Part shown: piece after piece, positions 7,347 through 39,760 of the stretch | Layout of the letters: every line of letters begins with the position of its first letter | Numbering within the stretch: position 1 is the first letter of the stretch | IMG/VR virus record: IMGVR_UViG_3300024246_000007 | Location: 1-52,087 of that record | Reading direction: 5' to 3' (one strand) | DNA from: a virus | Taxonomy: Duplodnaviria > Caudoviricetes | Length of the DNA stretch: 52,087 nt | Notes under the pieces: model-generated | What the model saw: the letters and a program-made list of their open reading frames with translations, nothing else | Database searches by the model: none | Told to the model about the DNA's origin: nothing | Program-made: the position numbers and the translations under genes

Positions 7347-9500
7347 TTACGCGCCCATCACGCCTTGCAGGAAACGATTCGCCATGGCGATGTTCCCGGC
7401 AAAGCCGATCAGTTTCACCATCGCGTCCTGATTGACGCTGAACCGATCCGGGTCCAGCGGCACGCAATCGCGATCCTTGTGGGGTCGGTAGTAGATGTAC
7501 TCGGTGTTCAGCATGAACATGCTGTTGGTCGGAGCACCGGAGCCCGAAAGCCACGATCCACCGTTACCCAGCACGCTCACATTGCCGGAGCTGTTGCCCT
7601 GGAAACCGCCGTCATAAACGACGTCAGCATCCATGAACTTCAGCGCCATGAACCCGGCCATCGCGCTCCGCTCATCCTGGATACGCTGAATCGCCTGAAG
7701 CGATTCCCAGTAATAACGGAAATACGTATTGTCCGCGATGATGAGGTCCGGACGATCCGCCTGTCGGGCCTGGTTGAGCCACATGCGGTTCATCATGGTC
7801 TGCATCGTCGCAGCGCCGGGCGTCAGGCCTTGGGCAGCGAACGAGAACGCGTTGTTCTGCCAGAAAGCCCAGATGCTCGAATCAATTCCGCCGATCACGC
7901 CGGAATTGTTGGTCGTCGAAACGAGCAGCTGCAGACCACCGATCTGCTTGCCGCCGTCGGCCGTGCCGTTGCTGTAGGCATCGTTGCTCAGATTGTTCTG
8001 GAACGTCCGTTCGGCATTGCCGATGCGGGATTCCAGCAGATCGAGCATCTTTTCTTTGCCCGAGTTCTGGAGCATTTCCAGACCCGAGATCGAAACAGCC
8101 ACCGCAGCTTGCGCGATGGGGTATTGAGCCGCCGTAAAAACGTCTTGCGGCGTGATGTTGAGGATGTCGTCAGTTCTGTTCGCTGCACCGGCTCTTTATC
8201 CGGAGCATCAACCGCTCGCACGGTTGCTCAGACTATCTCTTCGCCTCACCGAGGCGTCGGGCGCTCGTGGTCGGGTTATTGTTGGGACTCACCGACTAGT
8301 CGTTAGAGCTTCCGCCAAACCAAAGGCCCTTGGCGGCTTGCTACGGGATTGCCTCAGAGAGGGTTTCCCCGTTTCACCCGATGTTTGCTCGTCGCTCACG
8401 CGGCGAGAGGACTACCGATTTCCAGAAATCCTGAGTAGCGCTTGTAGGTGCCATTCTCGCTATATTCAATTTCTTGAACAATAGCTTGGCCACCGTCGAA
8501 GGGCTTCACCTTGCCCTTCTGCGAAAGACGACGCAGAAGTGCGTTGTTCTTGGTCCTGATCTTAGCGCGCTGGCTCTTTATCCAGCGCCTGCATCTTCAT
8601 GTTCGATGCAGAGGAGACTATCTCACCACCTGCTTTGCGTCGTGCGTTGGTCTTATTGCGACCTACGGTCAGATCAAGGAGCTTCTTTGCTCGAAACTCT
8701 GGATCTTGCCACAACGCTTTCAATCTCTCGGAGTTCTTCTTTCTCGTCGCTTCCGACGCCACGGTGCGCGCTGCGATTTCTCGCCGCAATGCACTATGCT
8801 CTGGCGTTGCCCTCGCGATATTCGCAAGTGCTTGGGACCTCTTCTTCATCTCTGGGTCCATCAAATGCTTTGCGATGGTGCGCCGCTCTTCTTTCGAGAG
8901 AGCCGCCCAACCGCGCCGCTGATGAACTGAAAGCGCCTGCCCATAAAGCTGAGCCTTGCGCGTGGGAATGAGATTGTAGCCCTTCGCCTCGTCGTCGGAC
9001 GAGTAGTGATCTATCCACCATTGTTCCCGAACAAGCCGCTCGTCTTTTCCGCATTCTTCGATGACGCCGAACTCAAATGCGTCAGCGCCATGCAGCGTAA
9101 AAGATCGTTGCAAGAACTCGTTGGGATGCACGCCGCGCAAAAGATGGCTGCGGTGCTTGTTGAGCCGTGCCCGCATAGTTACGGACGATCCAACATACAC
9201 CTTGCCGTTAACGCGGTTTTTGATGAAATAAACTCCAGATATCATCGCAGATGCCGGGCGCTCGTGGGTGGATTATTCTTTCGTCACCACCTAGTCGTTA
9301 CGCCTTCTATCGCCCTCGTTCAACTCACGAGTGAGTCAAAACTACATCGATAGCTTGGCACGGGATTGGGATTCTCACCGTCCCCCGTTTCACCCGGTTT
9401 TACAACGTCCACTCAATTAAACGTTGTCGGCCAGCTTCCGCGAACGATTGAACAACGTCGTCGTGGTGATTTCTGACCAATTGGTATTCGGGACTGCCAC
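7347..9500 (-). CDS. Major capsid protein, spliced: complement(join(7347..8170,8428..8554,9420..9500)), 343 aa
   Basis: RBS AGGAGA + GTG at 9500; exons join in frame as MAVPNTNWSEITTTTLFNRSRKLADNV|TKNNALLRRL...TYKRYSG Y DILNITPQDVFTAAQYPIAQAAVAVSISGLEMLQNSGKEK...; 81+127+824=1032 nt; follows scaffold gene. Confidence 0.9.
8171..8427 (-). mobile_element. Group I intron 2 of capsid gene (257 nt, no ORF)
   Basis: Exon ...AGGAU pairs with intron GUCCU (U-G at splice site); P3 CGGGUG/CGCCCG; P7 GACUA/UAGUC; P8 CGCCUC/GAGGCG; terminal G at 8171. Confidence 0.9.
8555..9419 (-). mobile_element. Group I intron 1 of capsid gene (865 nt) with homing endonuclease
   Basis: Exon ACAACGUU pairs with intron GACGUUGU (U-G at splice site); P3 CCGGGUG/CGCCCGG; AACGACUA and GAGAUAGUCU core elements; terminal G at 8555. 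Confidence 0.92.
8562..9245 (-). CDS. Intron-encoded GIY-YIG homing endonuclease
   Basis: 'SGVYFIKNRVNGKVYVGSS..MRARLNKH...REQWWID...GYN' followed by a basic helical C-terminal region. Confidence 0.9.
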   Translation of the reverse strand: MISGVYFIKNRVNGKVYVGSSVTMRARLNKHRSHLLRGVHPNEFLQRSFTLHGADAFEFGVIEECGKDERLVREQWWIDHYSSDDEAKGYNLIPTRKAQLYGQALSVHQRRGWAALSKEERRTIAKHLMDPEMKKRSQALANIARATPEHSALRREIAARTVASEATRKKNSERLKALWQDPEFRAKKLLDLTVGRNKTNARRKAGGEIVSSASNMKMQALDKEPAR

Positions 9501-16942: not shown

Positions 16943-16945
16943 GAC

Positions 16946-16973
16946 GTTAGTCTAACACATCAGTTAGACTAAC
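16946..16973. repeat. Perfect 11-6-11 inverted repeat
   Basis: GTTAGTCTAAC-ACATCA-GTTAGACTAAC, filling the gap after terL. Confidence 0.85.
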
Positions 16974-25125: not shown

Positions 25126-25135
25126 AGTTCGAAAC

Positions 25136-25201
25136 TCAAGCATAGCTTTATATCAAAGTCAAGCGTTGCTTTGTTGTTTCGATCAAGCAGAGCTTTATAA
25201 T
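25136..25201. promoter_or_regulatory. OR-like region: three operators TCAAGC-N3-GCTTT plus repressor promoter -10
   Basis: AAGC-N3-GCTT at 25138, 25161, 25185; TATAAT at 25196-25201; minus-strand TTGACT overlapping the middle operator. Confidence 0.85.
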
Positions 25202-25567: not shown

Positions 25568-25604
25568 AAAGCAACGCTTGACAGCCGTATAAAGCCGTGC
25601 TTGA
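25568..25604 (+). promoter_or_regulatory. OL/PL-like region: two operators and TTGACA
   Basis: AAAGC-AAC-GCTTGA (25568) and AAAGC-CGT-GCTTGA (25591); TTGACA at 25578; near-identical inverted copy of the cro promoter region. Confidence 0.85.
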
Positions 25605-25631
25605 GTGCTTCTACCGCAACGGGAGCACGAC

Positions 25632-28898: not shown

Positions 28899-29324
28899 AT
28901 GGGTTGTGACATTCATTTGGTTCTTGAGCAGCGCGACGCCGACCTCGGATGGGTTGGCATTGATACTTTCGCTGGCCATGAGTCCAGTTACGGTAGGGGA
29001 TATAACAGTCCTGCTGCTCGCAGTCGTAACTACAAGCTTTTTGCAGCACTCGCTGGCGTTCGTGGAGACGGTCCCACACCGCGCGGCATCCCTGAGGATG
29101 CGAGCACAACAACGCGCCTCCTTGTGAAGGAATTGGGAAGCGACGGCCATTCTCACTCTTGGCTTCCGCTCATTGACGCAGCACGCGAATGGAATGTCGA
29201 GAGATACACGGCCGAAAAACTCCGCGATGGCTATCAAGAAAAGTTCCCAGAATCGTTCTGGTTCGGGATCGATTCCGAAATGGATCTCTCAAAATATCGC
29301 GTGGTTTTCTGGTTCGACAACTAG
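28899..29324 (+). CDS. Conserved phage hypothetical protein
   Basis: 'MGCDIH...RNYKLFAALAGVRG...PRGIPEDAS...HSHSW...RVVFWFDN'. Confidence 0.7.
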   Translation: MGCDIHLVLEQRDADLGWVGIDTFAGHESSYGRGYNSPAARSRNYKLFAALAGVRGDGPTPRGIPEDASTTTRLLVKELGSDGHSHSWLPLIDAAREWNVERYTAEKLRDGYQEKFPESFWFGIDSEMDLSKYRVVFWFDN

Positions 29325-29330
29325 TTTTAA

Positions 29331-29891
29331 TTGGAAACAAAGGCAAACATCATGGATAAGATTGACGAAGAACTTCGCAACGCCTTTGAGCAGGAGATTG
29401 CCAAGGGTCTGACCGAGAAGGCAATCGAGGGATTGCAAAAGGATCTCCGCAAGGTCGCGGACTCCTTCGAAGACGATTTCATGTGGAACCTGAAGGACAA
29501 CCTCGCCTACAACCTCACTGGTTGGGTCGTCGACATGGCCGAGCGCGCCGTCGAGCAGATGCTTGCCGGCAATGACGACCAGATGCGCCGCTATCTGTCG
29601 TGCGACAAGAGCGGCGAGGATGGCCAGTATATTTGCTTCACCGGCCGCAGCGACGGAGCTTATTTCGGAGCTAGACGCAAAGACCACGAACAGCATCCGG
29701 TCATCCATGGCCGCCTTTTCGAACAAGGCGCCGTCGAATTGCGCAAGAAGGTCGCGCAGGCCAATGAGGCACTGATCCGCGACGAGCGCATTCTCGATTT
29801 GGAAGATCAGGTCAAGTCGCTAGTCGCTCAGGTCAACAAAGCGATCGCCGAGAAAGATGCAATGTGGGAGCGCGTCAGGGCGCTTTCGTAA
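29331..29891 (+). CDS. Coiled-coil hypothetical protein
   Basis: 186 aa ORF; start may be the internal ATG. Confidence 0.55.
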   Translation: METKANIMDKIDEELRNAFEQEIAKGLTEKAIEGLQKDLRKVADSFEDDFMWNLKDNLAYNLTGWVVDMAERAVEQMLAGNDDQMRRYLSCDKSGEDGQYICFTGRSDGAYFGARRKDHEQHPVIHGRLFEQGAVELRKKVAQANEALIRDERILDLEDQVKSLVAQVNKAIAEKDAMWERVRALS

Positions 29892-29910
29892 ATTGGGAAT
29901 TAGCGCTGAA

Positions 29911-30714
29911 ATGAACCCTTACGTGATCCAAGGCCCGGCATTGATCTCGTTCAGCGGCGGTCGCACCTCGGCCTATATGCTGCACGAGATCCTGTGCGCT
30001 CACGATGGCAAATTGCCCGATGATGTGCATGTCACCTTTGCCAACACTGGGAAAGAGCGGGAAGAGACACTTCGATTCGTCCACGACTGCGCCACTCATT
30101 GGAACGTGCGTGTGCGCTGGCTTGAGCGTGCAGATAGCGGTTTCACTGAGGTCGGGTACAACAGCGCCAGCCGAAAAGGCGAGCCGTTCGCGGCCCTTAT
30201 CGCCAAAAAGAAATATACACCGAATGCCGTGACTCGGTTCTGCACGGTCGAACTCAAGATCAGGGTAATGCGCGACTTCGGCCGATCGGTCGGTTTCGAG
30301 ACATGGGACAACGTGATCGGGCTTCGCTATGACGAAGGTTTGCGCGTCATGAAGGCGCTGGCACGCAACGATGAAGCAAAGGAACGATTCCGCGCCTTGA
30401 TGCCTCTGTCGAAAGCCAAGGTCACAAAGCGCGACGTAATGGCTTTCTGGGCCGCCCAGCCATTTGACCTTGGGCTAATGTCTTATGAGGGGAACTGCGA
30501 TCTCTGCTTTCTCAAGTCGAGAGCAAAGCTCGCGGCTATCATGCGCGAGAACCCTGGCATGGCCGATTGGTGGATTGAGCAAGAGAAGGTCGGCAAAGGA
30601 CGGTTTGTCACTGAGTACAGCTACGCCAACCTACTCGACCATACTGAGCGCTCGCCAACTCTATTTGATGATGAGCACGACGTTGAATGCGGGCTGCACT
30701 GTGCAGCCGAATAA
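29911..30714 (+). CDS. PAPS-reductase-family (PP-loop, Fe-S) protein
   Basis: 'SFSGGRTS', 'NTGKE', 'RFCT.ELK', 'GLRYDE..R', 'GNCDLCFLK'. Confidence 0.8.
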   Translation: MNPYVIQGPALISFSGGRTSAYMLHEILCAHDGKLPDDVHVTFANTGKEREETLRFVHDCATHWNVRVRWLERADSGFTEVGYNSASRKGEPFAALIAKKKYTPNAVTRFCTVELKIRVMRDFGRSVGFETWDNVIGLRYDEGLRVMKALARNDEAKERFRALMPLSKAKVTKRDVMAFWAAQPFDLGLMSYEGNCDLCFLKSRAKLAAIMRENPGMADWWIEQEKVGKGRFVTEYSYANLLDHTERSPTLFDDEHDVECGLHCAAE

Positions 30715-30861
30715 TAGCGCTAATGCCCCGGTACAGCGAGGTTGAGCAATGATCTACGTCTTGGCTTTAATCGGAGCGTGGACTGTCGCAGGGTGGTTCA
30801 TGGAGCTTTGGCGAACCCGGAAAGACAAGGGCTATGATGCAAGCAAGTGGGGAGCGCTTTA

Positions 30862-31320
30862 ATGAGTGATCAAAGCGACCTACTCGAAGAACTTCGCCAC
30901 CATGAGCGCGAATATCCCTCTCTGGTCCATGGTCCATTGTGTGGCCGCGCCGCCGACGAGATCGCCAGCATCATCACCCAGGTATCCTATCTAAAAAACG
31001 CTCACGTCTTTGCGTTGACCGAGATCGCCAAGCTCAGAGAAGCAATAATGATTGGAGCCGCAGAAGTCGTCAGCCTCCGCGCCCAGCTTGCGAGCGAACG
31101 CAAGGAAGTTGCTGGCGAAATAGAGCGCCTCCGTCAACTTCTCGACAGGACGACTAGCGAATCCCTACGGGTTCACACGCAGCTTGCGAGCGCGCGGAAG
31201 GCGCTGGATGCAGCAAATGAATATTTCGAAGACGCAGCAACGTCGAGCGCCTATTCGCGCCGCGTGGTCAAAGAGATTCGCGCCGCATATACAACGTTAA
31301 CTGACGAAGAAGGAACATGA
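30862..31320 (+). CDS. Coiled-coil hypothetical protein
   Basis: 'AADEI', internal repeat QLASERK/QLASARK. Confidence 0.55.
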   Translation: MSDQSDLLEELRHHEREYPSLVHGPLCGRAADEIASIITQVSYLKNAHVFALTEIAKLREAIMIGAAEVVSLRAQLASERKEVAGEIERLRQLLDRTTSESLRVHTQLASARKALDAANEYFEDAATSSAYSRRVVKEIRAAYTTLTDEEGT

Positions 31321-31929
31321 GCATGGTGGCTGCGCTCTTTGTCGAGACCAACGGAATCTACTTCGGACTTCCGAACGTAGACCCGTGGGACGTGCGACGG
31401 GATGCGCGGCAATATGCCGGAACGCATCCGGTCGTTGCCCATCCCCCCTGCGATCGCTGGTGCCAGATGGCGCCTGTCAATCAGGCTCGTTATGGTCATC
31501 GGGTTGGAGACGACGGCGGCACGTTTTCCGCGGCGCTGGCGGCTGTGCGGCGCTGGGGCGGCGTGCTCGAGCACCCCGCGGTGTCGCTAGCCTGGGCCGC
31601 TTTCGATCTTCCTCGCCCTCCGAGTTCAGGGGGGATGGGTTCGTGGCTTCTGCGGCGGCTGGTCAGCACACGTCGAGCAGAGGCATTATGGACACCGAGC
31701 ACGCAAGGCGACGTGGCTTTATGCCTTCGGTGTCGAGTTGCCGGATCTGCCATGGGGAAAAGGATCACCCCCGGAGGCATGGATTAGCGCCGATCGACCT
31801 CGAGCCGAGCTCGCCGCGGCCGGCATCGGTCAGTTGAGCAAACGCGAGGCCAAAGCAACCCCGCTTCCGTTTCGGGATCTGCTGATCTCGATGGCTTTAA
31901 CTTCTGCTTACCGAAAGGGCGACGAATGA
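31317..31929 (+). pseudogene. C5-cytosine-methyltransferase-like gene with a one-base frameshift in a G6 run
   Basis: 'VVAHPPC' and 'GGVLEHP' in the first frame; deleting one G at 31629-31634 continues into 'VEQRHYGHRARKATWLY...ATPLPFRDLL', ending at 31929. Confidence 0.7.
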
Positions 31930-32159
31930 GTGAGGTGTTCGATGACCCTGATTTCGTCGAGTCTGAAGAGGTTCAGACCGAGTACGAGCGTGGTCGAGCA
32001 GATGGCATAAGGCATATGCAGTCCATGGCTGATGACGTACTCGCACGAAGTTTAGCCGATGAGCTTGAAATAATGGCGCTGAAGGCTCGCGTCGAAGATC
32101 TGAATCGGCGCCTCGCCTTAAAGACCGCACAAGGAAAGGTAGATTCAAATGGCACCTGA
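31926..32159 (+). CDS. Hypothetical protein
   Basis: 77 aa, ATGA coupling. Confidence 0.5.
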   Translation: MSEVFDDPDFVESEEVQTEYERGRADGIRHMQSMADDVLARSLADELEIMALKARVEDLNRRLALKTAQGKVDSNGT

Positions 32160-32367
32160 CCGCTTCGGCAACAAAGCAATGCTCGACAAGATGGATGAAG
32201 CTGAACCATTTTTCATCCTGCGTGGCCAGGATGCATTTGCAGCTCACTTGGTGTCTCAGTGGGCAGACATGGCCGAGAGCGCTGGAACGTCAGGTGCCAA
32301 AGTCCAGAACGCTCGGCAATGCGCAAGAGCCATGAAGAACTGGATAAAGAAAAAAATTCCAGATTGA
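32149..32367 (+). CDS. Conserved small phage protein
   Basis: 'EPFFILRGQD.FA...V..WA'. Confidence 0.6.
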   Translation: MAPDRFGNKAMLDKMDEAEPFFILRGQDAFAAHLVSQWADMAESAGTSGAKVQNARQCARAMKNWIKKKIPD

Positions 32368-32633
32368 TTTCGTTTCACACCACTTAAGGAAAACGATGAT
32401 GCATTGGCTTTATCGAATTAGATGTTGGTGGCGCGGCTATCACTGCGACTCGCCGGACATAGGCCGTTTTCGATACGACGTCAGTGGCATATGTTACTAT
32501 TGCGGCAAGGTTGGAGATGGGATCAACCACAATGACGATTGAACGCCGCGAGACGATGACGGCAACCATGCAGCCCGATATGTACGACGGACTGCGAGCG
32601 AGTTTTCTTAACGAGTTGAAAAGGAGAGGATCG

Positions 32634-33017
32634 ATGACGGTCAATAACCTTGTACTCCAGATCACCAAAATGACTCCGGCAGAGCAATTTGAACTGGCCT
32701 TCAAGGTTGCCGAGAATATTGGATACGATCTCATTCCGGCGAGGTGCGAGTATTGCGGCTCCGGCCCCTGCGAAAATTGCAGGAATAGCGGCTATGCCGA
32801 TCCCGAAAAGGCAGAGATGTTCTTGGCGGCCATAGAGCTGGCAAAGCTGCCGAGCCCTTGGGTTTTTGCCAAGGGCAGAACGCGGCCAGATGAACCCTTA
32901 TGGGGCGTCCGGCTGACTGATGAGGAAGGCAACATCACCTCGGAAGCAGAATCGGAGCATCCGGCTGATGCAATACGGTTAGCTGTGAGCCGGCATCCGG
33001 TTTTGAATCAGCATTAA
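32634..33017 (+). CDS. Hypothetical protein with CxxC pairs
   Basis: AGGAGAGG RBS before ATG 32634; CEYC/CENC. Confidence 0.5.
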   Translation: MTVNNLVLQITKMTPAEQFELAFKVAENIGYDLIPARCEYCGSGPCENCRNSGYADPEKAEMFLAAIELAKLPSPWVFAKGRTRPDEPLWGVRLTDEEGNITSEAESEHPADAIRLAVSRHPVLNQH

Positions 33018-33038
33018 CCATCGGATAGGGAAAGCCAC

Positions 33039-33245
33039 ATGTCCTTCACTCACTCACGATCTGCCCTCGACATCAAGCTTGAGATCTACGAGGTCGAAGC
33101 CCTGATCGACTGGCATCACGAGAATCAATATCGTTCTGCTGATCGCGCGGAATACCAAGAGGCAGCGAACAGCAAGCAGCGCTCCGACGAGCTTGAGGGC
33201 CAGTTAAAGGCTCACCGCGACGCATTTTCTCTAACCTCGGGTTAG
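33039..33245 (+). CDS. Hypothetical protein
   Basis: 68 aa. Confidence 0.5.
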   Translation: MSFTHSRSALDIKLEIYEVEALIDWHHENQYRSADRAEYQEAANSKQRSDELEGQLKAHRDAFSLTSG

Positions 33246-33249
33246 CGCC

Positions 33250-33534
33250 ATGAGCGAATGGAAACCGATCGAGACGGCACCAAATGGACGCGATGACATG
33301 ATCGACGTCTGGTGCGTTCCGTTTCCTGACGACGATTTTAAACCTGAGCGCGGCGGCATCCGGCTTACCGATGTGTTCTGGTACGCAGAGACGCCGGCCC
33401 CCGGATGGGCGAGGCTGCTTGATGACGGCAACGTCGATTTCGTTGAGCGTCCGCCATCGGTAACCGGAGGGCTTCCTCCGTGGAGGCCGACGCATTGGAT
33501 GAAAATTCCTGACCCTCCGCTAACGAACTGTTAA
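33250..33534 (+). CDS. DUF551-like phage protein
   Basis: 'EWKPIETAP ... PTHWM..P.PP'. Confidence 0.7.
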   Translation: MSEWKPIETAPNGRDDMIDVWCVPFPDDDFKPERGGIRLTDVFWYAETPAPGWARLLDDGNVDFVERPPSVTGGLPPWRPTHWMKIPDPPLTNC

Positions 33535-33538
33535 TGCC

Positions 33539-33718
33539 ATGAAGAAGCGCGAGCGCAAATATCGAATGCTACAGGTCCCGATCGTCCAAGAGGACGCGCG
33601 CTGGAAATGCGAGACGTGCGATTCTCCGACAGAGAACGACGAATCCCGCTGGTGCATTCATTGCCGGATGTACTGGGAAGATTGCCGCAACGGACTTTGG
33701 CAGGACGACATACCATGA
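33539..33718 (+). CDS. 59-aa zinc-finger-like protein (not in ORF track)
   Basis: CETC...CIHC; ATGA overlap with the excisionase-like gene. Confidence 0.45.
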   Translation: MKKRERKYRMLQVPIVQEDARWKCETCDSPTENDESRWCIHCRMYWEDCRNGLWQDDIP

Positions 33719-33954
33719 CCGACACGCTCGACCATGACACCCGCGAAACGCTCTACGTCACCGACGCAGAGCTGATCCGGCGCATGGGCGTGCCGGAGAA
33801 GATCGCGCGCGCGGCGATCCAGGAACTCGACCGGGACCGCGCCTCGGGCTTTCCCCAGAAGAAGAAATTGTGGGGAGATAGGCGTTATTGGCCGGCTGTG
33901 AAGGCTTACCTTGATCGCACGAACGGGCTTAAGGTGGATCGTAACATTTCGTGA
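33715..33954 (+). CDS. Excisionase-like winged-HTH protein
   Basis: 'TDAELIRRMGV...GFPQ...WGDRRYWPAVKAYLD'; near integrase. Confidence 0.65.
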   Translation: MTDTLDHDTRETLYVTDAELIRRMGVPEKIARAAIQELDRDRASGFPQKKKLWGDRRYWPAVKAYLDRTNGLKVDRNIS

Positions 33955-34019
33955 CAATGCGGGACTTGCGTACGCGGATATTGCGTGTATATTGCGTCTA
34001 TCAGCAACGGAGCAAGAAC

Positions 34020-34406
34020 GTGAACCAGTGTAGATTTTGCAGCGCGCGGACCGAACCTCAAGTCAAGTACGGGGTACGCCACTATGCACACTTCAAATGC
34101 TACCTCGATGCAGGCAAGAAGTTGTCGGACCTTCATGCGTGGCAAATCGGAGAATTTCCATTCCGTTTGCTCAAGGAGCGCGGTCTTGAGCAAGAAGCAT
34201 ATGCCGCCCTTGCAGAAGTTGCGCGGGCGAACAAGCCAGTGGCATACTTCAATGTCACAATGGATGCTTTCGATGGCCAGCAGTACGGCATGTTGACGCT
34301 GTGCGTTGAGGCGGACAGTGAGGACGATGCCGCACAGAAAGCCATTAAGCAGGCGGAAGATGATGGAGCCAAGAAGGTCAAACTGATGTTTACGAGGGCC
34401 GCGTGA
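34020..34406 (+). CDS. Hypothetical protein (CxxC...HxxC)
   Basis: GGAG RBS then GTG at 34020; promoter-like TTGCGT-16-TATATT upstream. Confidence 0.5.
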   Translation: MNQCRFCSARTEPQVKYGVRHYAHFKCYLDAGKKLSDLHAWQIGEFPFRLLKERGLEQEAYAALAEVARANKPVAYFNVTMDAFDGQQYGMLTLCVEADSEDDAAQKAIKQAEDDGAKKVKLMFTRAA

Positions 34407-34594
34407 CTCCGACCCAATACAAAGCCGCCATCAAGGCCCTCGGCCTCTCGCAAGAGAGGGCCGGGGTCTGGCTCGGGATCGGCCGGCGCACGTCTCAAGG
34501 ATATGCGATCGGAGAATCTCCCGTTCCCGAACCCGTGGCTAAACTATTGCGTCTTTGCGTGAAGCTGAAGCTTGCCCCGGAGGACGTGAAATGA
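34403..34594 (+). CDS. Small HTH protein
   Basis: 'MTPTQYKAAIKALGLSQERAGVWLGIGRRTSQGYA.G...VPEPVAKLL'. Confidence 0.75.
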   Translation: MTPTQYKAAIKALGLSQERAGVWLGIGRRTSQGYAIGESPVPEPVAKLLRLCVKLKLAPEDVK

Positions 34595-35814
34595 GCAAGC
34601 CCGTAAAGGTGCGTAGCGCGCCAGGTCTCATCTGGCGGCCGCGCGGCAAGGCATGGGAAGCCCGCTGGCAGGCCCGCACCGATCTCGTCAAGCGCGGATT
34701 CGGGACGAAGTCGGTGAAGCTCTGGACCGGCGCCGTCGACCCTACCAAGGAGGAATGGGACCGGATCGCCGACCGCTGCAACGAGCTGCAAGCCGATATG
34801 CTGGTGTGGGCGCGCGGCGGACTCCCCGAGGTCGGCCCGTTCGATGGCACGCTCCGATCGCTCATGCGCGCCTACAAGACCGACCCGGATTCGCAGTACC
34901 GCAAGATCCGCTACAACAGCCGCGTCCACTACGACGCCCTTATGTCGCTGATCGAGACCGAGCACGGCGACAAGTTGTTGGCCGATCTGAAAGGCCGTAC
35001 CTTCAGTCGCCTGCACGAGGACTGGACTGCCGGCGGAAAGATCGCTATCGCGCATGCGAAGATGGGCATGCTGCGGACGCTGTTCAGCTTCGGCGCGACC
35101 CTCCTGGAGGACGATGATTGCGGGCGCCTGTCTGGCATCCTGAGCAAGATGCGCTTCGCCATGCCCAAACCCCGCACGGAGCGCCTGACAGCCGCCCAGG
35201 CGGTCGCCATCCGATCCAAGGCCCACGCGCTCGGACGTCCCTCGATCGCGCTCGCCCAGGCAATCCAGTTCGAATGCATGCTCCGGCAGAAGGACGTCAT
35301 CGGGGAATGGGTACCGATCCGGGAACCGGGGATATCGGACGTCCAAGCCGAAGGCCTGAAATGGCTCCGCGGCATCCGCTGGGAAGAGATCGACCAGAAC
35401 ATGGTCCTGCGGCACGTCACCAGCAAGCGGCAAAAGCTGATCGAGATCAGTCTGAAGAATGCACCGATGGTGCTGGAAGAACTAAACAATTTTCCCAAAT
35501 ACCGGGAAATTCGGCAATTCGGTCCGATCATCGTTTCAGAGTGGGACAATCTGCCTTGGACCGGGCCGGAGTTCAGGCGCTGGTGGAGGATCGTTGCGGA
35601 CGCCGCTGGCGTGCCCAAGACGGTCAGGAACATGGACAGCCGGGCCGGCGCGATCAGCGAAGCCACGGACGCTGGAGCCGATCTGGAGCACGTACGGCAT
35701 GCCGCCACCCACTCCAACATTTCGATGACGCAGCGATACAGCCGCGGCGCCGAGGACAAGATCGCGAACGTCCAGATTGCCCGAATGGAGCACCGGAACA
35801 AGCCGAAAACGTGA
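34591..35814 (+). CDS. int: Tyrosine recombinase / integrase
   Basis: 407 aa; 'MLRQKD', 'TSK', 'MDSRAG', 'ATHSNISMTQRY'; GGAGG RBS, ATGA coupling. Confidence 0.9.
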   Translation: MSKPVKVRSAPGLIWRPRGKAWEARWQARTDLVKRGFGTKSVKLWTGAVDPTKEEWDRIADRCNELQADMLVWARGGLPEVGPFDGTLRSLMRAYKTDPDSQYRKIRYNSRVHYDALMSLIETEHGDKLLADLKGRTFSRLHEDWTAGGKIAIAHAKMGMLRTLFSFGATLLEDDDCGRLSGILSKMRFAMPKPRTERLTAAQAVAIRSKAHALGRPSIALAQAIQFECMLRQKDVIGEWVPIREPGISDVQAEGLKWLRGIRWEEIDQNMVLRHVTSKRQKLIEISLKNAPMVLEELNNFPKYREIRQFGPIIVSEWDNLPWTGPEFRRWWRIVADAAGVPKTVRNMDSRAGAISEATDAGADLEHVRHAATHSNISMTQRYSRGAEDKIANVQIARMEHRNKPKT

Positions 35815-35886
35815 TGACTGACCATGACTGACACGGGTATAGCAAAATCAATCGGTTATGGACCGTTAATCTTAACGCCCTGTTTC
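35814..35886. other. Candidate attP region
   Basis: Intergenic, directly after int; tandem ATGACTGAC (35814, 35824); AT-rich core with TTAAC-GCCCT-GTTT. Confidence 0.45.
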
Positions 35887-35952
35887 GGTACAGGTGAGCA
35901 ATTTCAAGGGCCTCGTCAGCTATCGGGGCGGCGAGAAAACGCAGGAGACGGT

Positions 35953-36144
35953 ATGGCAAGCCTAGAACCTCAGACGATCAATGACCAAAATTGGTACTAT
36001 GAATATCCGACGTATCTCCTTCTGGTCCATGAAGTCAGGAGGGATGATGGGACTCATATTCGAACCGACACGGTCAAGATCTATTGGCGGAAGATCGAGG
36101 CTTCATTGGCTCGTCGGCATAAGCCGAAGGCAAGGAAGCGGTGA
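35953..36144 (+). CDS. Hypothetical protein
   Basis: AGGAG RBS; 63 aa. Confidence 0.55.
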   Translation: MASLEPQTINDQNWYYEYPTYLLLVHEVRRDDGTHIRTDTVKIYWRKIEASLARRHKPKARKR

Positions 36145-36154
36145 CGGCAAGTAA

Positions 36155-36334
36155 ATGAAACTTTTGGATGACGACCAGGACAACAGCCAAGCGTTCGCTC
36201 AGCAATGGGCCTGCCGACTCTGTAGCGAGCGTTTCACCTTGGGCGAGATGTTGCCGGGCAAGACGTGGCTCTCTCCAATGAGGTGCCCGTATTGCAAGAG
36301 CGATGAGACGTTCCGTGAAGGTCACTTCCATTAA
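36155..36334 (+). CDS. 59-aa zinc-ribbon protein (not in ORF track)
   Basis: CRLC...F...RCPYC.S. Confidence 0.55.
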   Translation: MKLLDDDQDNSQAFAQQWACRLCSERFTLGEMLPGKTWLSPMRCPYCKSDETFREGHFH

Positions 36335-36366
36335 CGCGTCGTCAACGCCACTTTTAGGAGAGAGAC

Positions 36367-36585
36367 ATGGACCCGTTTAGATCGCGCCAGAAACGAGATG
36401 CGGTGAAGGCGGCTGAGGCCGAAGGAAAGGTGGCCGACAGCATGGACTATCGAATGGCGCTCATGGAGCGCGTGCATAAGGGCGAGATAACCCTGGAGCA
36501 GGCGCAGGCCGAATTGAAGAAGGTCAAACGCAATGCCAAGAAGAACGGAATGACCACGCGCAATTCCGTCTTTGTCCATTCTTAA
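36367..36585 (+). CDS. Small basic helical protein
   Basis: AGGAG RBS; 72 aa. Confidence 0.6.
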   Translation: MDPFRSRQKRDAVKAAEAEGKVADSMDYRMALMERVHKGEITLEQAQAELKKVKRNAKKNGMTTRNSVFVHS

Positions 36586-36611
36586 AAACAGCGCTCATAG
36601 GTAGTTAAAGC

Positions 36612-36836
36612 ATGTCCGATGCCGAGTTGAACAAGGCGCTGTACGACGAGGATCGCTCTATGCCAGAGCCGAAACGGTGGTATTGGGGCCGCGACTACGG
36701 CAAGGACCTGCTTGAAGATATCAACCAACTCGCTCATTATCGGGGGACAGGCTGCATCCACCGGGATTGTTTGCAGCGAGCGCACAGAGAGATTCGGCGA
36801 CTGCGCAACGCCATTAATCAACAGGAACCAAAATGA
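36612..36836 (+). CDS. Hypothetical protein
   Basis: 74 aa. Confidence 0.5.
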   Translation: MSDAELNKALYDEDRSMPEPKRWYWGRDYGKDLLEDINQLAHYRGTGCIHRDCLQRAHREIRRLRNAINQQEPK

Positions 36837-37108
36837 AAACGATGTTTTGGCTACTTGTCATGTGCTCTGCCGCCTTCGCTCAGCCACGGCAGGGCACATG
36901 CGTGTTGCCGGATGGATCAACCGCATGGACTTCAAATGAGGAAAATTGTGCGAACCAGAGCGGAATTTTTCATCCAATTTCACCGCTTTGGAGTGGTGGC
37001 CCGACTCCCGGAACCACCTCAACATCGATGCCAAAATGTCCTGATGGATATCAACTTGTCGCCACACCGCGACCGATGTGCGCGCGAGATCTACGCGAAC
37101 CGGAATAG
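36833..37108 (+). CDS. Small secreted Cys-containing protein
   Basis: Signal peptide MKTMFWLLVMCSAAFA; four further Cys. Confidence 0.55.
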   Translation: MKTMFWLLVMCSAAFAQPRQGTCVLPDGSTAWTSNEENCANQSGIFHPISPLWSGGPTPGTTSTSMPKCPDGYQLVATPRPMCARDLREPE

Positions 37109-37136
37109 TTTCCTTTTCATCACACAAGGGGATACC

Positions 37137-37418
37137 ATGAGCGAGATATTTGGAACGCCGGAAGAGACCGCGAAGTGGATTGACGAGCGGATCGTCCAGA
37201 TTCGCCAACAGCTCGAGGCCGAAAAGCTCGCTACCCATGAGCGCTGTGTGAGGATCGAACAAGATTCAAGGCAACGGATCAGGGACGCTGAGCGAGACTT
37301 CTATGATCGCTGCGCGCCGATGCAACGGGAGCTTGACGAACTCCTGAAGGTCGCCACTATCAAGCATGCCTATTCTCCGATCCCTCCGATGATCGTCCCG
37401 GCAAAGGACTTCCCCTAA
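37137..37418 (+). CDS. Coiled-coil hypothetical protein
   Basis: AAGGGG RBS; 93 aa. Confidence 0.5.
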   Translation: MSEIFGTPEETAKWIDERIVQIRQQLEAEKLATHERCVRIEQDSRQRIRDAERDFYDRCAPMQRELDELLKVATIKHAYSPIPPMIVPAKDFP

Positions 37419-37420
37419 CG

Positions 37421-37600
37421 ATGACAGAGCGCCAACCCATTTGCCCGGCTTGCGGCGGCCCAACTCACAGGCAGGGAATGCACTGCGCGGCATGCCTGGA
37501 GGCCTACATGGAGACCATGACGCCGGCTGACTGGCAGAGCGCACTTGGAGAGGTCATTGACCGAATAGTTGGCGCTGACGGTGAGATGGCGAGGGAATGA
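37421..37600 (+). CDS. 59-aa zinc-finger-like protein (not in ORF track)
   Basis: CPACG...CAAC. Confidence 0.5.
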   Translation: MTERQPICPACGGPTHRQGMHCAACLEAYMETMTPADWQSALGEVIDRIVGADGEMARE

Positions 37601-37839
37601 TGGGCGCGACAATCATCTTGGGGCCACAGGCTGCTGCGGAGACCGTCTGCCACGAGGAGCAGCTTCGGATCTGGGCAGATGACCACATCATCGGCGCGCT
37701 CGCCCAGGAAGGATACTTCCGCGATGATCTGTCTTACGACGACAAGATCGACATTGAGCGGATCGTCATGCGCGAGATCAAGAGCATCATCGAGAGCGCT
37801 TTCGACCATCCAGAGGCGCGGACAATCAAACGGCGCTAA
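37597..37839 (+). CDS. Hypothetical protein
   Basis: 80 aa, ATGA coupling. Confidence 0.5.
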   Translation: MMGATIILGPQAAAETVCHEEQLRIWADDHIIGALAQEGYFRDDLSYDDKIDIERIVMREIKSIIESAFDHPEARTIKRR

Positions 37840-37861
37840 TAAGCTATGACGGAGAACAACG

Positions 37862-38984: not shown

Positions 38985-39282
38985 TTTTGGTTCTTTCGAA
39001 CGGTTTCCATGTCCCGGCGAAGAACTTGTCTGCTTGGCGGCATATTCGAAAGCCGCCCATGCCGACCATGAAAGCGATTAAACCCTCTGGGAATTGGTTC
39101 AGTAGCCTCAACACTTGCGGCGTGAAAAAGTTCGCTGCGAGGCCGCCAACCACGATATATCCGATGATTTCCCACGGTCCCGCTTTGCGGACGAGGATTG
39201 CGTGAACGATACCGCCCGCAAATCCTGCGATGAGATAATGAATGTTGATGTCGAAAAAGATGGCATCAAGCATTCGCCCCAC
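38977..39282 (-). CDS. Putative holin
   Basis: 101 aa, 3 Gly-rich TM helices, basic C-term. Confidence 0.55.
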   Translation of the reverse strand: MGRMLDAIFFDINIHYLIAGFAGGIVHAILVRKAGPWEIIGYIVVGGLAANFFTPQVLRLLNQFPEGLIAFMVGMGGFRICRQADKFFAGTWKPFERTKNE

Positions 39283-39760
39283 CGTTGGCCATAGCTTCCA
39301 AAGTGCTAGTCAACCAATAGAGCATCGTCGGGGTGATGCGACCGGCCGGAACCTCCTTGTTTTCGGGTAGCAGTTTGCAGGCAAGAAGCCCCGTAGCAAT
39401 GAACTGAGTGCATTCCCATGCGCCAGGCTCATGCCAGTTTCGACTGGCGAACGGCCCCCAAAAGTATGTCACTGCAATGGGATCGTAGGGCTCATGGAGG
39501 TGGCTGCGCAGAAACGCGACGAAGGCAGTGGCCTGCTCTTCGGTGGCCTTCAGACGGACGAATAGTTCACGCCTGAATCCAGTATCATAGCCGGGCTTGA
39601 ACTCCTGCACGCCGCCGAGGAGATGGGCTCCAATATAGGTTCCTTTGTCGCTCACCCCGTCTACATGCGACAGCTCGGAACCGTATTGGGCAACGCCGAT
39701 CAGCTTCGTAAATACCCCGGCTTCCTGTTCCACAAACCGAAGCGTGATGAACGTAGTCAA
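39266..39760 (-). CDS. Permuted papain-like (YiiX/NlpC-P60-type) enzyme
   Basis: 'SHV' near the N-term, 'PYD', 'WECTQF' catalytic Cys, 'ITP..L'. Confidence 0.65.
   Translation of the reverse strand: MTTFITLRFVEQEAGVFTKLIGVAQYGSELSHVDGVSDKGTYIGAHLLGGVQEFKPGYDTGFRRELFVRLKATEEQATAFVAFLRSHLHEPYDPIAVTYFWGPFASRNWHEPGAWECTQFIATGLLACKLLPENKEVPAGRITPTMLYWLTSTLEAMANGGANA

Follow-up and report, generated by a model that had tools for sequence, protein, structure and literature searches.

Ordered candidate recombination sites with position-specific cores between the accessory genes of a lambdoid phage and related phages

The window analysed here, the 52,087 nucleotides of virus record IMGVR_UViG_3300024246_000007 (Duplodnaviria; Caudoviricetes), is a whole 52-kb phage record with a lambdoid gene layout: portal, major head protein and terminase, replication and repressor modules follow one another, and then comes a long + strand run comprising a Rad52-family gene, a gene for an HNH nuclease, some 27 open reading frames (ORFs), most of them small, and a 407-residue tyrosine integrase. 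The phage is of the alphaproteobacterial lambdoid type. Between the small genes lie the short sites (Table 1) that are the subject of this report. An earlier note on this DNA had drawn attention to a 13-bp quasi-palindrome at the ends of these genes, and took the genes to be integron-like cassettes added or shuffled by a tyrosine recombinase. That observation is confirmed, and the interpretation is partly supported.

Anatomy of the sites

Relatives of the locus were collected in two ways, via the integrase and via site patterns (L numbers denote loci and G numbers genomes). Duplicate records (L010, L013, L014, L016, L018, L024, L145, L146, L153, L154, L162 and L164) and the overlap of L003 with L004 were removed before counting, and loci showing just the searched pattern or scattered matches (L147, L150, L155, L157, L163 and L186) were left out; the pool holds 256 sites from 30 loci. 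Each site is 19 bp long, unique within its genome and directly oriented, with the consensus C-N-Y-T-A-A, a 7-bp core and W-W-A-R-N-G. About 24 cores are recognised across loci, and 21 sites lie in the window. The core is different at every junction of one genome and near-invariant for a given position, or slot: within-slot identity is 0.95–1.00 at core positions 0 to 6, 0.46 at +7 and 0.38 at +8. The sites had been chosen on the core, and identity was therefore re-measured at held-out positions; for sites chosen on positions 2–5 only, the held-out positions 0, 1 and 6 gave 0.94–0.96, compared with 0.70 at +7 and 0.58 at +8. The arms are symmetric, T(-3) and A(+9) being complementary in 76% of sites and C(-6) and G(+12) in 73%, while C stands at -6 in 78%.

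All 17 instances listed in the earlier note lie where it placed them, and four further sites occupy junctions that it did not list (29328, 29890, 37115 and 37576). The motif is real, with its form amended: the variable part is 7 bp rather than 5, the core is slot-specific rather than free, and the arms reach C at -6 and G at +12. The stronger support is out of sample: relatives carry 16 of the 17 listed cores, each in its expected place in the series. The remaining one, B2 (30860, TGAGTGA), is found again in 4 other loci but overlaps a start codon and counts only as probable. In the window alone, the loose pattern of the earlier note marks 14/22 array gene starts and 22/79 control starts, a modest excess (p=0.005), and the refined left arm C-N-N-T-A-A-Y marks 8/22 and 1/79 (p=1e-5), with the qualification that control starts come from a crude gene caller and that the refined arm was derived from a pool that included the window, so the comparison is not fully independent. 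With up to one mismatch, CNYTAAY-N5-GTTA has 12 matches on the two strands of the window, 11 of them at 30.7–36.6 kb.

Such a motif might instead be regulatory, as a CtrA box (TTAA-N7-TTAA), or a by-product of stop codons beside ribosome-binding sites. The seven-base spacing is indeed that of CtrA boxes, which alphaproteobacterial phages possess, as PMC9437464 outlines, and TAA stops are commoner in the array (9/22 versus 13/79 control). Yet the CtrA box, raised as a caveat in the earlier note, is matched exactly by 3/256 sites and within one mismatch by 37/256, and the slot spacer is fixed, not free. Both variants leave unexplained the fixed seven bases of each slot, the C at -6, the sites inside coding sequence (the left-arm TAA is the called stop in just 90/242 sites, and genes often continue through the site) and the core-edge hybrids described below; we consider them very improbable. 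Cores T and B2 include the start codon, so that the first residues of the slot's gene (Met-Thr and Met-Ser, respectively) are fixed. Elsewhere the core specifies C-terminal residues of the gene that precedes it.

Fixed order, changing genes and hybrid sites

Across the pool the sites follow a common order, A1 A2 B C D E F G H H2 I J K, xis-int, att, M N O P Q R S T U V, which 62 of 1488 site pairs break; false calls account for part of these exceptions and genuine duplicated blocks for others, such blocks occurring in L158, L160 and L165. The genes between the sites turn over extensively: 347 genes fall into 295 families, one core is followed by 14–18 different gene families, and the 15 O sites precede 15 different families. 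As the earlier note had proposed, the sites bound mostly single-gene cassettes, with breakpoints at sites and one gene in 169/248 segments (median segment 274 bp). Among the 73 cargo proteins scanned (of 119 listed), 55 have no PHROG match, and those that could be named include DNA methyltransferases, HNH, radical SAM, PAPS-reductase-like, RNase H-like and Lar-like proteins. Cargo genes in the window are separated by intergenic gaps of at most 34 nt and gave one PAPS-reductase-like match, one helix-turn-helix match and two PHROGs with unknown function. The phrog_12600 gene (31317–31929) exceeds the L004 copy, to which it is 95% identical, by 1 base; the extra base, near a G run at about 31634, splits the frame and is either real or an assembly error.

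The portal, head and terminase genes of the window have a match in none of six array-bearing genomes (G003 read for 40,000 of its 41,836 bases), and 39266–39733 is the only window gene matching all six. Partial site runs occur in otherwise unrelated phages (L144, L149, L148 and L161). Assembly chimeras are an unlikely cause, given that the shared stretches are just ~10–20 bp. A megablast of window positions 26–39 kb against annotated phages gave no match, a PDB profile search likewise gave none, and a search with the HNH gene in 401 genomes gave four matches at 52–59%, with no array within 2–3 kb around each. For 86 distant loci, a generic shared-10-mer test for other such arrays drowned in background and is uninformative. 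One phage with partial runs, the 63.6-kb G002 (L144, L149), carries two of them, G-H-I-H and F-G-H, on opposite strands; it has a serine-recombinase-like ORF and no tyrosine recombinase match.

An integron-like arrangement, in which a site belongs to each gene and a single strand exchange can insert that gene at any other site, is not supported. In its favour, the slot spacing is like that of attI1, where the crossover at the right edge follows a G (68% of the cores end in G), and some blocks are duplicated in L158, L160 and L165. The cores, however, are tied to positions and not to genes, as the O sites illustrate, and the order is fixed by slot-specific cores, which largely refutes this arrangement and with it the idea that cassettes are shuffled. 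IntI identity was rejected for the window integrase, which has no TIGR02249 match at E<=0.01 and only a weak match to archaeal XerA (15.9 bits, cut-off 220). So was attC identity: RYYYAAC and GTTRRRY each occur in 0/256 sites, and, as the earlier note had anticipated in dispensing with attC hairpins, just 1/21 window sites folds below z=-2. The chance that the array works in the integron manner appears minimal. Integrons and phage-borne attC clusters, in the features that PMC9892861 sets out, do resemble the array in their co-oriented, mostly single-gene cassettes without known function, their proximity to a tyrosine recombinase and their sites overlapping stop codons; unlike them, the array has no IntI, attC hairpin or RYYYAAC/GTTRRRY, and its cores are positional.

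Breakpoints between related phages fall at the sites far more often than expected. Outside xis-int, 46 block ends were identified, of which 40 are sharp, and 13 of these 40 lie at sites in both phages, where the null is 4% (p=3e-9); the null is generous, because sites lie near gene edges. The other 27 sharp ends lie elsewhere. For example, the 611 bp common to the window and L004 run from the D arm through the last base of the E core, and the block common to L158 and L160 extends from J through the last base of K. Among the contigs of run X2, ends lie at 36341 and starts at 36598 and 35873.

More diagnostic than block ends are hybrid sites. In L143 and L165 xis-int has been lost exactly, leaving the K core joined to the right flank of att; the att flanks of the two loci differ, and therefore the two deletions look independent. 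L158 has two further right-edge hybrids, of the H2 core with the E flank and of the G core with the C flank, and two blocks of L158 and L165 stop one base into the core (H versus E, R versus Q), giving left-edge hybrids. The hybrid joins thus fall at one or other edge of the core. Lambda-type Int, a tyrosine recombinase, cuts at the two core edges.

Alternatively, the sites might be conserved boundaries that serve annealing proteins (Rad52-, ERF- or RecT-like) or host homologous recombination, no site-specific enzyme being involved. In favour of this, a Rad52-family gene lies upstream in the window, the majority of block ends fall away from sites, and the repeated promoter and stem-loop cassettes (PeSLs) of T4-type phages drive such shuffling, according to the account in PMC2839356. 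Annealing would nonetheless have to act on common sequence of just ~10–20 bp, and it accounts neither for a conserved part of exactly 7 bp within symmetric arms common to all slots nor for hybrids joined at the two core edges; moreover, the annealing gene itself differs among relatives. This explanation seems to us a weak contender.

The integrase and a candidate attachment site

The window integrase matches the PHROG integrase family (E=4.5e-15) and, below the cut-off, PF00589 (E=6e-5); it has the catalytic residues of a tyrosine recombinase, as invariant R, K, R, H and Y. Its closest annotated homologue, 49% identical, belongs to Bradyrhizobium phage ppBjS10J-1, which is without the ordered array, and GTDB scans gave no close integrase. 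In a quick tree the array-bearing integrases form one clade. PMC8138268 gave no subgroup placement for the window integrase.

The att slot, which follows int, is set apart by presumed arm-type repeats on either side of its core, seen by sequence; none was noticed at other slots. In 10 of 11 clade loci 32 nt separate the core from the right arm, the automatic arm call having failed for L008. More distant family members carry a related signal. Thirty-seven distant loci were chosen, of which 6 were too short and 6 were without an arm pair, and the remaining 25, all array-less, were scored at all offsets with a matrix that represents the arms alone and was derived with att sites excluded. On average the score is highest at offset 32 (p=2e-5, some loci being kin), where 7/25 loci score positive, as against 5% elsewhere; this suggests that the integrase family uses such arms at its attP even where the array is missing. 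Among 114 loci whose integrases are further removed (some of them duplicates), none has the ordered run itself. On this evidence the att core is a candidate attP core, and if attP is one of the slots, xis-int would itself be a cassette. Likeness between L056 and L075 fades near the presumed core, which offers weak support.

The att core varies, being CGCCCTG, CGCGCTG, CGAGCTG and CGCGGCG in the window (35876–35882), L003, L008 and L027; in one frame the first two read as synonymous codons, a hint that attB may lie within a protein-coding gene. In the window a further TAA-N7-TGA site (core CATTTCG, 33942–33954), also present in L008, lies at the end of the presumed xis; it could be an additional slot, taken by the genes that have entered between xis and int. 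Some distant integrase homologues (L034, L035, L036, L083, L095, L096, L116, L119 and L120) have other genes immediately downstream, with no arm repeats seen after the stop.

Taken together, site anatomy, order and hybrid joins make it probable that these are ordered recombination sites at which the tyrosine integrase of the phage family swaps genes between matching cores; that some tyrosine recombinase, left unnamed, does so is considerably safer and very probable. As to the enzyme, the earlier note's choice of a tyrosine recombinase is upheld, and the arms at the putative attP make the integrase the best candidate. Its core-binding domain would bind the arms (CNYTAA and TTARNG), and the enzyme would cut both core edges. 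With two phage genomes in one cell, identical cores would allow strand exchange to be completed, so that the intervening DNA is swapped, whereas unlike cores within one genome would mostly block deletion and thereby keep the order. Rare events between partly matching cores could yield the hybrid sites, deletions and duplicated blocks, and phages that have lost xis-int would rely on integrase supplied in trans. A slightly bolder proposal, which we still favour, is that this is natural cassette exchange: a phage integrase co-opted to about two dozen orthogonal att cores, attP among them. It would include, as part of the same proposal and no more firmly held, a slot grammar common to phages with unrelated virion genes, which trade accessory genes position by position.

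Several observations weigh against exchange by this integrase. A few of the 27 off-site ends are missed site calls, and many are mid-gene or at gene edges, so other recombination also acts; just 4 of 15 homologous gene pairs at least 90% identical share both flanking cores (partly owing to missed site calls), and some genes have moved to another slot and left their flanks behind. G(+12) can be explained by the ribosome-binding site, with which the right arm overlaps. At the window att site T replaces C at -6 and A at +9, and offset 32 is the single best offset in just 4 of the 25 distant loci (p=0.09, some kin). HK022 Int needs arm-type sites for integration in Escherichia coli, as PMC7736782 reports in its treatment of that system, and Int activity on slots without such sites may accordingly be low. 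No excised circle, attL/attR pair or clade prophage junction was found, searches for attL/attR in the L056 genome and the proviruses L090 and L137 included. Finally, an unrelated tyrosine recombinase fills the integrase slot in L159, and the complete array-bearing records G001, G002 and G009 are without this integrase, of which G008 has a fragment. In arrays without an intact copy the integrase would have to be supplied in trans, an assumption, and a host enzyme is a less likely alternative.

These last cases bear on a further explanation, namely that the sites work as described and the recombinase is a host enzyme or that of another phage. It gains from the arrays kept in complete genomes without the integrase, from those in phages sharing no virion gene with the window and from the partial runs in L144, L148, L149 and L161. 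Against it, the attP position of distant family members fits the slot arms, and of the 9 full arrays that the site patterns brought up, 7 contain the integrase or remnants of its module: 4 have an intact integrase, 2 precise deletions and 1 a truncation, the other two being L159 and L158, the latter with an unrelated short module without family match. XerC/D fails, as the dif centre is 6 bp (PMC2731167, for the sites analysed there) and 0/256 sites have both ATAA and TTAT. We judge another recombinase unlikely, if the least unlikely of the alternatives, and retain the phage integrase as the probable enzyme.

Table 1. Sites, genes and repeats of the array region in the window (sites are 19 bp).
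Feature	Position	Strand	Remarks
A1, core TTGGAAA	29325..29343	+	relatives TGGGAAA; not listed in the earlier note
Cargo ORFs, 29–267 residues	29352..37839	+	co-oriented, between sites; mostly without family match
A2, core TTGGGAA	29887..29905	+	left arm AAA; not listed in the earlier note
B, core TGCCCCG	30718..30736	+	
B2, core TGAGTGA	30857..30875	+	probable site; overlaps stop and start codon; between B and D in 4 other loci
D, core CTGACGA	31295..31313	+	within 3' end of upstream ORF; block shared with L004 begins here
E, core CTTCTGC	31895..31913	+	block shared with L004 stops at last core base
F, core AGACCGC	32116..32134	+	
G, core CACCACT	32372..32390	+	
H, core CGAGTTG	32606..32624	+	
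I, core CCATCGG	33012..33030	+	
J, core CCTCGGG	33229..33247	+	
K, core CGAACTG	33518..33536	+	left boundary of integration module
Presumed excisionase, 79 residues	33715..33954	+	kept beside int; position only, no family match
Tyrosine integrase, 407 residues	34591..35814	+	invariant R232, K279, R351, H374, Y383; not IntI
Two tandem 10-bp repeats	35813..35832	+	presumed arm-type sites of attP (left)
att, core CGCCCTG (35876–35882)	35870..35888	+	candidate attP core; 32 nt left of right arm
Inverted copy of 10-bp repeat	35915..35924	-	presumed arm-type site (right)
N, core CGGCAAG	36139..36157	+	
O, core CGCGTCG	36329..36347	+	
Q, core TAGGTAG	36592..36610	+	
R, core TCAACAG	36812..36830	+	relatives TCAGCAG
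S, core CATCACA	37112..37130	+	decayed left arm; not listed in the earlier note
T, core CGATGAC	37413..37431	+	holds next start codon
U, core CGGTGAG	37573..37591	+	not listed in the earlier note
V, core TAAGCTA	37834..37852	+	

Relation to known systems

The array shares with lambda-type Int systems the tyrosine recombinase residues and inverted arms around a 7-bp overlap. In the core sites of lambda and HK022 Int, as described in PMC7736782, palindromic arms likewise flank a 7-bp overlap matched between partners, and the HK022 overlap may be arbitrary if identical in both; the arm sequence of the slots is different. Engineered cassette exchange provides a second likeness, since in SIRA, as presented in PMC3936721, orthogonal overlaps fix the order of cassettes. 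The differences are that SIRA uses a serine integrase and that, compared with laboratory multi-site constructs, the slots are natural, comprise about 24 ordered cores and would have attP among them.

The nearest natural phage precedent is the PeSLs of T4-type phages, which are, in the account given by PMC2839356, short elements between accessory genes at which modules come, go or are exchanged. A PeSL is a promoter and stem-loop cassette that occurs repeatedly, whereas the slots are 19 bp, unique per genome and have recombinase-site symmetry; PeSL identity was rejected, there being no junction repeat family among the 20 largest repeats shown and no hairpins. The XerC/D dif sites treated in PMC2731167 resemble the slots in having TAA...TTA inner arms around a variable centre. 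Identity with dif was rejected too: the slot centre is 7 bp and not 6, ATAA and TTAT occur together in 0/256 sites, and the slots share one orientation and a set order. In that source every proteobacterial dif site analysed has a six-base centre (PMC2731167).

Phage mosaicism at gene boundaries is usually attributed to illegitimate or relaxed homologous recombination, and pdif sites are known to bound gene modules. A brief literature search of mostly open-access papers found no description of such an array. The slot array points to a programmed route to mosaicism with exact, predictable crossover points, and makes the question testable with one enzyme and pairs of 19–25-bp sites. If the proposed exchange is true, the array would be a natural counterpart of the ordered cassette exchange so far built in the laboratory, and it supplies candidate orthogonal sites for one integrase.

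Other features of the window deserve brief mention. A homing-endonuclease-like ORF (8562–9245) adjoins the major head gene, and two 11-bp imperfect palindromes, 6 bp apart, lie between terminase and the next gene (16945–16972), a possible operator. Inverted repeats of 39 bp (82%; 25134–25172 and 25568–25606) flank a repressor-like ORF and are probably operators or promoters. At 28935–29895 the depth of the run X1 contig is lower (6.7 versus 9–10), the ends of this piece not being at slot sites, which suggests a variant or relative differing there.

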